Shown here piece by piece: positions 6,655 through 11,139 of a DNA stretch of 64,000 bases. This stretch comes from an uncultured bacterium (GTDB lineage Bacteria > Patescibacteriota > Gracilibacteria > Absconditabacterales > Absconditicoccaceae). Each line of letters starts with the position of its first letter. Positions within the stretch are counted from its first letter, which is position 1. The notes beneath the pieces were generated by a model. The model ran no database searches. It saw nothing but the letters and a program-made list of their open reading frames with translations, and had not been told where the DNA came from. The translations under genes and the position numbers were made by a program. Location of the stretch: the NCBI GenBank assembly GCA_963517005.1, contig CAUQDZ010000002.1, positions 12,198 to 76,197 of the forward strand. The letters are read 5' to 3'.

Positions 6655-9600
6655 ATGATGGATACTAATGAATCATATGCATCAGTTTGAAAAACAAAGC
6701 GAACAAAAGTCTCTGGAACTAATGATCTCTATGACTGAGGACAATTACCAGAAGTTTCTGTAACTGGAAAAAAGCCTCAAAATAAAGAGGGAGAGAAATG
6801 ACTCAAGAAAATAGGGACTTTAGATCTAAAAAAGATTGTAGAGGAGCCTAAAGTTGATCCATCGGATCTAGCAAAATTAAAAGCAGTTTTAGAATGAAGG
6901 CAAGATGAAGCAGTTAAGAGATTATTAGCTTCTTCTTTGGATAAAAATATTGGAAAACAACTCTTGAATGTTCTAGGAGGAATAGATCCTAATAGGTTAA
7001 AAGCAGTTTATGAAAATCTTACTCCACAAGAGAGAAATAATATGGAGTCCCTTTTGAAAAAAGTTGAAAATCAAGAAAATAGAGATAGAGTGCGTTTGAT
7101 TAACTGAGTTATCGAGATGACAAAAATTGAACTTGAGAATTTTAGAGGACAGATCTTGGAGCAAACTGCGTTTATACCTGAATCCTCAAATTCTAAAATT
7201 GAAAAAACTACTACTGAACTTAACTCATCTAACAATCAAGAATCTATCTCAAAAACAGAAAAGAAAAATCTGAATAAAATCCTTGATGGAGATTTCCTTG
7301 TAGAAGAAAAATTCAATAAAGTAGAAAAAGGACTCAGATCAGATTTTAGAAAGTTGATCGATTTGGTGGAAAATACCGCCTCTTTGAAAAGAGTATTTAA
7401 TGTTTTGAAAGCTCAGGTAGATGCTAAAATTGCACTTCCAGATTGGTCTAAACTTTTCGTAAAAGAAAATGGTGAACAATGGACAGAAAAAGAGCTTAAT
7501 AAACTTCAACAAGCATATTTGGCTTACTTGGAGTCTAAAAAGGATAATGCAGATACTGCCAGATGGAACCGTGTAATGAATGCTCTTGAATCAGGAATTA
7601 TCAATGGAGAGAAGAGCTTAGATGTAATCTATCAAGAAAATGTAAGTAGACCAATTTCCAAAAAAGAAAGAAATCAGGGGATTGAAGATGAACAGAGGAA
7701 ATTTAGACTTGAGCTTGCAAAAAATGGAAAGGCAAGCGAATGGAAAAATAATTACATGCAACAAAATCGAGAAGAGATTCAAGATATGCAGCAAAATTGG
7801 CTTTATGAAGGATATGTAGGATCAGAAATTTCTAAAATGACGGAAGATTATCTCAATGATAGATTTGATTCCTACACCAGAAAGGAGTGGAAAAACCATC
7901 TCAAAGAAGAACAAAAAAACTGAATTCAGAAGTCAGATTTAGGTAATTTTAGAGTTTTGGTTGATAGTATTAAAGATCAAAGTACTGATAATCAAATTTC
8001 TGCATTACTTACCGATACGAATTTTGATGGAGTAAGAAATCATCTCGATGGAAGAGGAACTAAAAGAGGAGATCAAATTGATCTAGCAATTCGTATGGCT
8101 CAGGCTGAGGGATTGTCCATGGATGCTATTGCTAGAAATATTGTGATTCATTTACATACCAAAAAATGAGAAGAATTTGATGGTGCTGTACCCGGTACAG
8201 CAAATACCTTTGCTGCTTGGCTTAGATCAGATATTAAACATGCAAGACTTGTGCAATCAGCACTCATGGATACGCCAGAAAATGCTGTAGATATTATGAG
8301 ATATGGAGCAGATGCACTTAAAAAGACACTTGAAGCGCAAAAGTTAACACCAGAAGAGTTAAAACAGATCGAAGATAAAATCAATACTGATCCTGCAACG
8401 AGAGAACTCTCTCAGCAAGCAAGAGATACGTTGATGGCAAATCTTTCAAGTTATTTGCTCTCTAAGATGAGAGAACCAGGAGTAAATGCAAATGTCAATG
8501 GTCTCGGAGTTGGAGTGAATGTCCCACTAAATCAGATTTTGAAAGGACTTTCCTTTAATCTAGGAACAGGAGCTTCTCTTGAGGGACAACCATTTGCATG
8601 AATAAGTGTTGCATGGAATACTGAAGTTGCTAAGTGGGATACAGGAAATGTTTCAGCTGGAATCTTTGCTGGAACAACACTTGGAATTATTCCAATTTAT
8701 GGCTTTAGCGTAGGAGTCAAACAAGATCTTAATGCCAAAAAAGTTCTTGGAAATATTGATCCAACCTCTCTTACGTCTCTCTCTATAGGTGGAAATATGA
8801 CTATGCTCGGACCTATCCCATCTTGGGGTGTGTCTGTAGGCATTGATAAGGATAAAATCGCTGGTATCGAAAAACAATACGATCATATCAAAAAGGAGAT
8901 TACTCCAATTATCGAGAAACTTCTAACCAAAGATAAAGATGGTAACTATCCAGATATTACAGCAACCCTCAAAACACTTTTCAATACCTCATCAGATGCT
9001 GAAATCAAAAAAGCAGCAGAAAATCTGACTTCCGTGATTGAAAGAACTAAAGCAGAAAATTTAGATCCAAAAGAGGCTGCTCAACTTGTCGGACAGCGAT
9101 ATGCAGAGAGTTGGAGAAATAATGCCGTACATGGTTTGCCAAAAGAATGGAGATTTACAGGAGCATCTCTTGGAGCACAGTTTATAGCAGGATTCTTACC
9201 AATAGCTACACTTAGTGTAACATTGACTAAATATAAGAATCTCTCACATAGCGATTCTCCAGAGTCAAGGGCTCGCCTCCAGCAAAGTATTGATGCAGGA
9301 AGAGGAGATAGAACGAGAGAATCTATCCAAAAGCAAGATTTTGAAAATATCAAAAAACAACTACAAGCAATAAATGTCCTCAATCCTAATGACAAACTAG
9401 AAATGAAAGATAACTGAGAACTTGTTTTATCTCTCTCACTCCTCAATAAAATTGGATTTAAGGTAAAAATCAATGAAAACTTGAAAGGATATATCAAGTC
9501 AGAAAATGGTACTTTGACTATTCCAGCAGGAGTATCTTACCGTTTCTTGACTTCAGCGAGAGCTAATGGTTCTGTTTCAGAACTTGATATTGGATATAAG

Positions 9601-11139
9601 GGAGCTGGATCTAGAGCTATGAAGCACTTAAATTCAGATTCTTTGAAAGAGTATGTCGGACTTAAGGATTATGGTCTTGACCAGAATATTACAGGATTGG
9701 CAAGTGCATTAGCTAAATTAGATTTCTCAGTTGGTGCAAATGGAATCATACCTAAAACAGTCCCTAATCCAAAGCTTGTTGTTATCGATCTAAATGGAAA
9801 GATTAGTCAAGGAACTCAAGATCATAAACGAAAAGAAATTTGAACTCTGACTAAAGATTCAGGTCTTGCTATCGACAAGGATGGAAATGTCTCAATCACA
9901 AAAGAAAAAGGAAAAATTACCAAAGAAAGTGTTGCTTCATTGACTCTTGATCAAAAATTGAATAATGAAGTAACTTCACTCTTTGATTCGAATACTATCA
10001 ATAGTCTCGTAAGACTAAGCAAACAAAGAGCTCAATTTGATAACTTCAGAGGCTTCCTCGCAAATGCAAAAGCCATGAAAGCAGAATATATAGCAGCGGC
10101 AAAAGATTTGATGAAAATGCTTCCAGATGCTCATTATAGTTGACTTAAAACAGCTTTGGGTATTAAAGAGGAAAATGGAAAGAAAGAGTTTGCAAATCCA
10201 GAACTCGCAACTCAGATTATGGATAGACTGAAAGCTGTCTTTGCGACAATTCCAGATTCTCTAAAGGCTTCGAAAACTGCAGTAGAAAACCTTGCAAGAC
10301 AGAGAAATTCAGAGTATATGAGAAATCATGATAAAAAATCTGTTTTGGAGGATTTCTCTGCTGGTAAGTTAAAAATTGATTATGTAGGATTGGCAGGTCA
10401 GCTTTCTCCTAAGCCTGAATCAAAACCTATGGAGAATTTGATTGGTTTTACTGCATTCTATAGAAGAAATGCAAAAGATGCGAGGGGAATGTCAATGACA
10501 GCCTACGGGCAGACAAATGTGCTTGATAAGACATTCCCAGTAGAAAAAGAGCAAGAAGCTCAAGCAAAACAGTGGCTTCTCGAAAATCTTGAAAAGCAAC
10601 CAATGCAACTTAAAGCTATCGCAAAGAGTATTGGAAAATTTGAAGAAAACTCTGGTGCTTTGACAAATGATGGATATCTTTCAGAAAAGTCTATAAAAGC
10701 ACTATTAAGTTGAAAATCTATTGATTTATGAAAGCAAAAGATTACATTAAATACTCAAATTGTCAAGTACTTCTTGGCTGAGTGTGCAAACGAATCTATT
10801 GGAATTCAGATTGATGGAATCACAATTGAAGACTCTCAGCATGTAGTTCAAGAACCGATAGGGATGACGTTTAATGCTTCGGAGACTACCACTCGTGCTA
10901 ATGTAGAGCAGCAAAAGTTTACTCCTGGATTATCATTTGGTGGAGGAAAGGAAGTTGAAAAAAAGCAAGATGATGGATATGGAGGACATACTGAACAAGA
11001 AGGATGAATAAGTACAGGATCTGGTAATGGCGGAACTCCTTTAGAAGTTCATAGAGGATCAACAGACCAAGACTCAAGTATCCATGCCTGATCGGGAACA
11101 GGATGAAGAGAAAATGGAAATGGATGAGGAGGTAGATAG
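6655..11139 (+). CDS. giant hypothetical protein (1494 aa): coiled-coil-rich, central Gly-rich hydrophobic segment, Gly-rich tail, no signal peptide
   Basis: Track ORFs 7117..7923, 7957..8169, 8251..8601, 8797..9417, 9481..9843, 9940..10143, 10156..10713 and 10774..11007 share one frame (coordinate mod 3 = 1) and are separated only by TGA. I read all joins from ATG 6655 to TAG 11137-11139 and found no TAA/TAG. Confidence 0.7.

Follow-up and report, generated by a model that had tools for sequence, protein, structure and literature searches.

Our study concerns a giant gene, here called the target, of an uncultured bacterium of the family Absconditicoccaceae (Patescibacteriota, Gracilibacteria, Absconditabacterales). 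It lies in a window of 64,000 nucleotides (nt), the whole stretch of DNA that was analysed, which corresponds to positions 12,198 to 76,197 of the forward strand of contig CAUQDZ010000002.1 (assembly GCA_963517005.1); coordinates below are those of the window. Translated with table 25, the target (6655-11139, forward strand) is a single open reading frame (ORF) of 1494 codons plus a stop. The protein has 1494 residues and 165 kDa, and includes 17 in-frame TGA codons read as glycine, because of which table 11 would cut it into up to 18 pieces. The target stands in the middle of an operon that is bounded by terminators and also encodes a small acidic protein (orf93) and a fibrillar adhesin:

6160..6182, + strand: terminator-like hairpin and T-run after adk; upstream boundary of the operon
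6265..6292, + strand: sigma-70-like promoter match (ATGACA-16-TATAAT, 11/12), the best of the region, 35 nt 5' of orf93
6327..6608, + strand: orf93, acidic protein of 93 residues (isoelectric point 5.0); 46-nt gap to the target
6655..11139, + strand: target ORF; 38-nt gap to the adhesin gene
11178..16430, + strand: adhesin gene, secreted fibrillar protein of 1750 residues (signal peptide, domain matches)
16451..16479, + strand: terminator-like hairpin and T-run, 21 nt past the adhesin stop; downstream boundary of the operon

The promoter site is a consensus match only, and promoter-like sites are no commoner here than in shuffled sequences. Upstream of the target lie rpsM-rpsK-rpsD-rpoA-rplQ-rplM-rpsI-adk and downstream the adhesin gene, with no phage genes, and this synteny is kept across the genus and most of the family. 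Only loci with 3 kb or more of sequence downstream were counted, and 47 of these 48 have an adhesin homologue 3' of the target on the same strand (tblastn, code 25). The pairing persists where the target is only 20-30% identical, and five further genomes of the same genus show it as well. A first-pass annotation, made by a model from the sequence alone, had placed the target directly upstream of the giant adhesin gene, and the co-occurrence across related genomes, which it had proposed as a check, is seen in these counts.

In all 40 loci with a target of at least 33% identity, the small gene orf93 lies 38-49 nt 5' of the target; in the 11 most divergent loci it was undetected. As orf93 precedes the target in all the closer clades and the adhesin directly follows it, the three genes form an operon. 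The product of orf93 has no match in Pfam, NCBIfam or PDB. Within the close clade it is better conserved than the target (consensus MTK..Y..T.L.KVK..WEPARGF.VL.RYN.LN.), of which it could be a chaperone or partner.

Besides its signal peptide, the adhesin comprises DUF11/CLIPPER repeats, three isopeptide-pilin domains (TIGR04226) and a C-terminal domain of about 550 residues that is lineage-specific; it also carries cysteine-rich repeats. A search of 5.8 billion proteins with the C-terminal domain returned the same adhesin family only, and PDB gave no match to it. At the C-terminus of the adhesin we found no transmembrane or other hydrophobic segment, no LPXTG-type signal and no basic tail; the genome encodes three sortases. 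In the most distant clades (L006, L008 and L011), the adhesin is spread over two or three ORFs in a row (about 360, 890 and 1250 residues), the last of which carries the C-terminal domain, which may thus be a separable unit.

A genuine protein of a lineage-restricted family

Table 25 is the right code for this genome: nrdD (24319-26514) needs 13 TGA codons read as glycine, and rpoA and rpsD also contain TGA. In the target itself, the conserved glycine columns 423, 505, 649, 921 and 1063 are encoded by TGA in some genomes and by GGN in others. Full-length homologues with 74-93% identity occur in more than 100 independent assemblies, and several of them have exactly 1494 residues. The ratio of non-synonymous to synonymous substitution rates (dN/dS) is about 0.36 overall and exceeds 1 in none of the 60-codon windows. 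The target encodes a genuine protein under purifying selection, and the number of independent full-length homologues, together with the low dN/dS, supports the continuity of the 1494-codon frame. The single table-25 frame of about 4.5 kb announced by the first-pass annotation is therefore real.

Selection and divergence are not uniform along the gene. Among close relatives, dS amounts to 0.4-0.75 at both gene ends (6655-7014 and 9900-11139) against 0.1-0.2 in the core, a 3-5-fold excess that suggests recombination at the termini or a mosaic history of them. The last residues (1441-1494) have a dN/dS of 0.74. The gene is single-copy in its own genome (1.0 Mb, 96% complete), where it has no paralogue, and self-BLAST found no internal repeats in its product.

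In some contigs the gene takes other forms. In the BNJT/BNJS long contigs (L054, L058, L059, L062 and L063) the homologue is split into short frames, most likely by frameshift errors of the assembly rather than by pseudogenisation. In a low-coverage metagenome contig (L038:1192-7599) the ORF extends to 2135 residues with a strongly hydrophobic, multi-segment C-terminal extension, and no adhesin was detected downstream of it; this could reflect a fusion, a deletion or a misassembly.

The target sequence has no match in Pfam, NCBIfam, PHROG, PADLOC or PDB (phmmer and two PDB profile searches), and with Pfam at E ≤ 1 it produced only a chance TPR-like match of 13 bits. An HMMER scan of 1.84 billion cluster representatives returned only 132 matches, which are fragments and full-length relatives of 1300-2350 residues with 24-50% identity. 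None of 29 distant relatives has a Pfam domain, and annotation sources know the target everywhere as 'hypothetical protein' only. Public translations of the relatives show tryptophan at the glycine columns, i.e. TGA read as tryptophan, which indicates that the whole family is confined to TGA-recoding lineages.

Our locus scans found the target in 12 species genomes, including the SR1 human oral taxon HOT-345 and metagenome-assembled genomes of Absconditabacterales, and in 64 metagenome loci. We surveyed 301 genomes of the class. The central module was found in all 8 genomes of the source genus and in 26 of the GTDB family's 40 genomes, a figure that rises to about 30 if matches to the C-terminal module alone are included. 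Outside the GTDB family it was found in only 3 of about 260 genomes. The family founded by the target is lineage-restricted: its members belong essentially to a single GTDB family of Absconditabacterales, in which TGA encodes glycine. The census based on the C-terminal module had left 6 of the 8 genomes of the genus without the family, a result ruled out by the central-module profile, which is present in all of them.

Database entries for this family call for caution. They are often table 4 translations (TGA read as tryptophan), with spurious tryptophans at conserved glycine columns, and others are table 11 fragments of 50-600 residues. Both kinds bias domain statistics, as well as profile searches, of SR1 (Absconditabacteria) proteins. 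Short proteins that carry the C-terminal module were considered as a separate architecture and rejected, since they are most likely table 11 fragments of full-length genes.

Architecture of the protein

The anatomy of the target was studied with 39-sequence alignments, made from code-25 translations of the loci, and with two AlphaFold models. The central model covers residues 176-990, with a predicted local distance difference test (pLDDT) of 72 and a predicted template modelling score (pTM) of 0.40, and the C-terminal model covers residues 985-1445. The following parts are distinguished:

6655..7194, + strand: residues 1-180, variable hydrophilic N-terminus (conservation, hydropathy)
7252..8469, + strand: residues ~200-605, all-alpha domain (AlphaFold pLDDT mostly 75-90)
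8014..8049, + strand: residues 454-465, DxNxDGxxxxxD loop DTNFDGVRNHLD, candidate Ca2+-binding site
8470..8853, + strand: residues 606-733, predicted beta-hairpin block I, with tips LG(V/I)IPIY and (I/L)GxIPSW
8854..9144, + strand: residues 734-830, helical insert between the hairpins (AlphaFold, family alignment)
9151..9228, + strand: residues 833-858, predicted beta-hairpin II, with tip FLAGFFPI and invariant G846
9937..10842, + strand: residues 1095-1396, C-terminal alpha/beta module (AlphaFold pLDDT ~90)
10780..10797, + strand: residues 1376-1381, ECANES motif, at the tip of a long hairpin (AlphaFold)
10843..11136, + strand: residues 1397-1494, variable glycine-rich tail (AlphaFold pLDDT <50)

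The middle of the protein is predicted to be a block of about 8-10 long amphipathic beta-strands. AlphaFold places those of block I at residues 632-640, 646-661, 664-675, 680-691, 706-718 and 721-733 (pLDDT 31-75), and those of hairpin II at 833-844 and 847-858, with the helical insert modelled at 734-826; strands of 12-16 residues are long enough to cross a bilayer. The beta reading has independent support from the family alignment, in which mean hydrophobicity alternates with a period of 2, not 3.6, over residues 600-733 and 830-858. One face of the strands carries L/I/V/F/W/Y and the other G/S/T/N/A, with many glycines at least 90% conserved. The strand interiors are essentially uncharged, the bases of the hairpins are rich in K/E/D, and their tips are hydrophobic, of the type G-x-(I/L)-P-aromatic. 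Block I is also the best conserved region of the target, with 57% identity to distant relatives over residues 601-650.

These observations bear on an explanation put forward by the first-pass annotation, in which the middle segment resembles a glycine zipper. Such a zipper implies transmembrane helices, two of which (around residues 663-689 and 833-861) would anchor the target in the cell's own membrane. The peptides quoted in its favour are present at residues 610-730 (nt 8482-8845), and the target itself does have two peaks of about 1.65 in Kyte-Doolittle hydropathy (KD19). Yet these peaks fall below 1.6 in most homologues, conserved prolines and glycines stand at the positions of hairpin turns, and no Pfam match to a glycine zipper was found. 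With the period of 2 and the hairpins of the AlphaFold model, this points to beta structure instead, and makes the helical anchor very unlikely.

The first-pass annotation described the N-terminal two thirds as helical, but the helical part is residues ~200-605 and 734-830. Within the close clade, identity is 39-62% in the N-terminus (residues 1-180), where dS is raised, compared with 83-97% in the core. The helices of the central model are short (12-33 residues) and bundle-like, and the composition of the target is K/E/L-rich, with about 27% charged residues overall. The all-alpha domain contains the acidic loop, in which D454 is conserved in 39 of 39 sequences, N456 in 35 (the others have D), D458 in 36, and G459 and D465 in 38 each. 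A helix precedes the loop and the next one starts at residue 472, while the loop itself is modelled with a pLDDT of about 60. In the PDB profile search with the target, EF-hand proteins reach only E ~1, and Pfam gave no EF-hand or dockerin match.

In the C-terminal module, the pattern Y1372...E-C-A-N-E/Q-S-x-G1383 is invariant, with E, C, A, N, S and G1383 each present in 39 of 39 sequences. C1377 is the sole cysteine among the 1494 residues, a depletion expected with P ~5e-6 at the 1.0% cysteine frequency of the proteome, and nearly all homologues with at least 35% identity have exactly one cysteine. No conserved histidine accompanies C1377 in the 39-sequence alignment of the module. The first-pass annotation had recognised no catalytic motif. 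This stands in so far as no known catalytic family was found, but the conservation of ECANES around the only cysteine makes it a candidate active or binding motif. The glycine-rich C-terminus that it had described is the tail of residues 1397-1494.

Structural comparisons were equally devoid of significant matches. With Foldseek against PDB, the C-terminal module reached at best E=0.25, with a template-modelling (TM) score of about 0.1, and the central model E=1.2, with TM scores of about 0.1 or lower. DltE, OXA and PBP were the top matches of the C-terminal module (TM ~0.1) and were not used as relatives. Against the viral structures of BFVD, the central model reached at best E=0.05 with a TM score of 0.08. 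As modelled, both modules are thus without detectable structural relatives (in PDB, and also in BFVD for the central model), and the PDB profile searches gave no significant match either. The non-significant tail of the matches of the central model to PDB is enriched in transmembrane beta-barrels, and also includes GFP-type and lipocalin barrels.

In its size, its helical content and its glycine-rich hydrophobic middle, the target bears a superficial likeness to phage tape-measure proteins, a possibility that the first-pass annotation had raised as a counter-explanation. That it is one, or other cargo of a mobile element, is next to impossible: PHROG gave no match at E ≤ 0.1, the viral comparison revealed no related fold, the neighbours are ribosomal protein genes, adk and the adhesin gene rather than phage genes, and the gene is single-copy and syntenic across the genus and most of the family.

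A second explanation bears on both modules. The hairpins might form a soluble beta-barrel of the lipocalin or GFP type, e.g. for lipid capture, and the C-terminal module might use Cys1377 as nucleophile, covalent attachment site or metal ligand, and so process, cross-link or tether the adhesin; either or both would act on the adhesin or on a host-derived ligand. The invariant ECANES motif with its sole cysteine, set within a confidently folded module, fits this idea, as do the GFP and lipocalin barrels among the weak Foldseek matches, the cysteine-rich repeats and isopeptide domains of the adhesin, and the dependence of candidate phyla radiation (CPR) bacteria on host lipids (PMC8080830). However, the cysteine lacks a conserved histidine and stands at the tip of a hairpin, which is neither a helix N-terminus nor a catalytic geometry known so far, and neither sequence nor fold matched a peptidase, transpeptidase, sortase, thioester protein or lipocalin. 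We regard this explanation as improbable.

The window encodes a second large, signal-less and cysteine-poor protein (58066-63450; 1794 residues, 0.11% cysteine), with glycine-rich hydrophobic stretches such as VPGYAGAGVLLGLAGGPLGLGVVG; BLAST found it unrelated to the target.

A possible role in host attachment

Absconditabacteria live as epibiotic predators or parasites and have giant surface proteins (PMC8080830). We tentatively favour the view that the target belongs to a host-attachment apparatus, as the adhesin's membrane-inserting partner, although we hold this to be a serious possibility rather than the probable answer. The beta-hairpin block would insert into a membrane, like elements of beta-barrel pore formers and membrane anchors, and the target would work with the adhesin at the site of contact with the host bacterium. 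There, it may tether the otherwise anchorless adhesin, or open or bridge a membrane. The DxNxDG loop would bind Ca2+, and orf93 would serve the target as a small chaperone or partner. The first-pass annotation, too, saw a segment that looks membrane-inserting and a candidate for host interaction or translocation, and we find both plausible.

Several lines of evidence suggest such a partnership. Strong exclusion of cysteine is typical of exported proteins, and the target combines it with an acidic loop of the Ca2+-binding type and with strands of suitable length and pattern, in the best conserved region of the protein. The enrichment of transmembrane beta-barrels in the Foldseek tail points in the same direction. 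The genetic organisation, with the pairing to the adhesin in 47 of 48 loci, orf93 in 40 of 40, short gaps (46 and 38 nt) and operon boundaries marked by terminator-like hairpins, argues for a joint function with an adhesin that lacks an anchor of its own, in an organism with an epibiotic lifestyle.

Other results weigh against this view. Neither the target (N-terminal maximum KD15 of -0.24) nor any other family member has a signal peptide, as the first-pass annotation had stated for the target; the hydrophobic N-termini of three distant homologues (L006, L008 and L010), at first taken for signal peptides, are artefacts of upstream extension of the ORF. The 96%-complete genome has no VirB4 and only one, ordinary, FtsK-type ATPase, and Omp85/BamA (PF01103) was not found in it, against matches in 7 control genomes. 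Hence, no known route of export or barrel assembly is evident, and with neither signal peptide nor Omp85 any export of the target would need a non-classical route. No pore former matched the target by sequence or structure. The beta block is modelled with low confidence (pLDDT 31-75, and pTM 0.40 for the central model), and its alternation could also fit a sheet packed amid layers of protein or a soluble barrel that is hydrophobic inside.

The lack of signal peptides throughout the family, and of an alternative secretion system in the genome, would be expected if the target stayed in the cytoplasm. It might be a signal-less scaffold of an attachment organelle that organises the pole where the adhesin is displayed, with hairpins that self-assemble or dock peripherally on the membrane from inside, without crossing it. 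The K/E/L-rich helical composition, the operon link to the adhesin and the reduced genome of this epibiont are compatible with such a scaffold. Its helices, however, are short and bundle-like rather than long coiled-coil rods, and Pfam gave no match to cytoskeletal families of mycoplasmas. The uncharged, glycine-lined strands, the exclusion of cysteine and the acidic loop better fit an extracytoplasmic or membrane setting. A scaffold is therefore doubtful in our view, if still to be taken seriously.

The membrane-partner view can be taken further, into a scenario that we consider unlikely. The hairpin block might build a beta-barrel in the host bacterium's membrane, perhaps by oligomerising, and so form a hitherto unknown, signal-independent, contact-dependent feeding pore or translocon of SR1 bacteria. 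The protein would be delivered with the adhesin. Ca2+ would gate it through the DxNxDG loop, orf93 would keep it from inserting while it is in the cytoplasm, and Cys1377 might tether it to the adhesin.

Published genome papers offer only generic pointers to giant surface proteins for the way in which Absconditabacteria and other CPR epibionts attach to their hosts and extract cell contents from them. Our results define a compact and conserved three-gene module, whose products are a small acidic protein, a 165-kDa protein with predicted membrane-type hairpins and no signal peptide, and an adhesin without its own anchor; relatives occur in lineages that include human oral SR1. It offers testable handles in the hairpin block, the Ca2+-type loop and the single invariant cysteine. 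Should it be the adhesin's membrane-active partner, the target becomes a direct candidate for the structure used in contact or feeding, and it would also bring two folds without detectable relatives. While its function is what we infer from the features above, the target is a well-defined and experimentally tractable candidate for the host-contact apparatus of SR1 bacteria.

Comparison with known systems

The known systems that resemble parts of the target each differ from it in important respects. Papain-like, NlpC/P60, sortase and YkuD enzymes invite comparison through their cysteine, but that of the target has no conserved histidine, and no match to these families was found in Pfam, NCBIfam or with Foldseek. 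The acidic loop has acidic or amide residues at positions 1, 3, 5 and 12 and a glycine at position 6, like the DxDxDG loops of EF-hands and dockerins. Unlike in EF-hands, the loop is single and the following helix starts about 7 residues later.

In Mycoplasma pneumoniae, the HMW cytoskeletal proteins are encoded beside adhesins, and their glycine- and aromatic-rich EAGR box is a beta-hairpin oligomerisation motif. Like HMW1 and HMW2, the target is large and signal-less, is encoded with an adhesin in a surface-attached bacterium with a reduced genome, and has hairpins rich in glycine and aromatic residues. It differs from them by the lack of EAGR or HMW signatures in Pfam, by its short helix bundles, and by its cysteine exclusion and acidic loop.

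The gene order recalls two-partner systems (TpsB/TpsA, usher/pilin), where a beta-rich partner is likewise encoded directly 5' of a co-conserved giant secreted adhesin. The analogy is one of gene organisation only, because the target, unlike TpsB/Omp85 proteins, has no Omp85 domain, POTRA or signal peptide, and the organism has no outer membrane or BamA.

Finally, the hairpins themselves can be compared with beta-barrel pore formers, such as aerolysin and the haemolysin/leukocidin family, and with small barrel anchors. Unlike pore formers, the target shows no homology to their cap, rim or receptor-binding folds and has no Sec signal. It also has several hairpins per chain, a 95-residue helical insert and a 165-kDa multidomain setting, and it is at most a putative pore former. 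What it shares with them are amphipathic, alternating hairpins rich in glycine, serine and threonine. Their strands of 12-16 residues are uncharged, their bases polar or charged, and their ends hydrophobic or aromatic.

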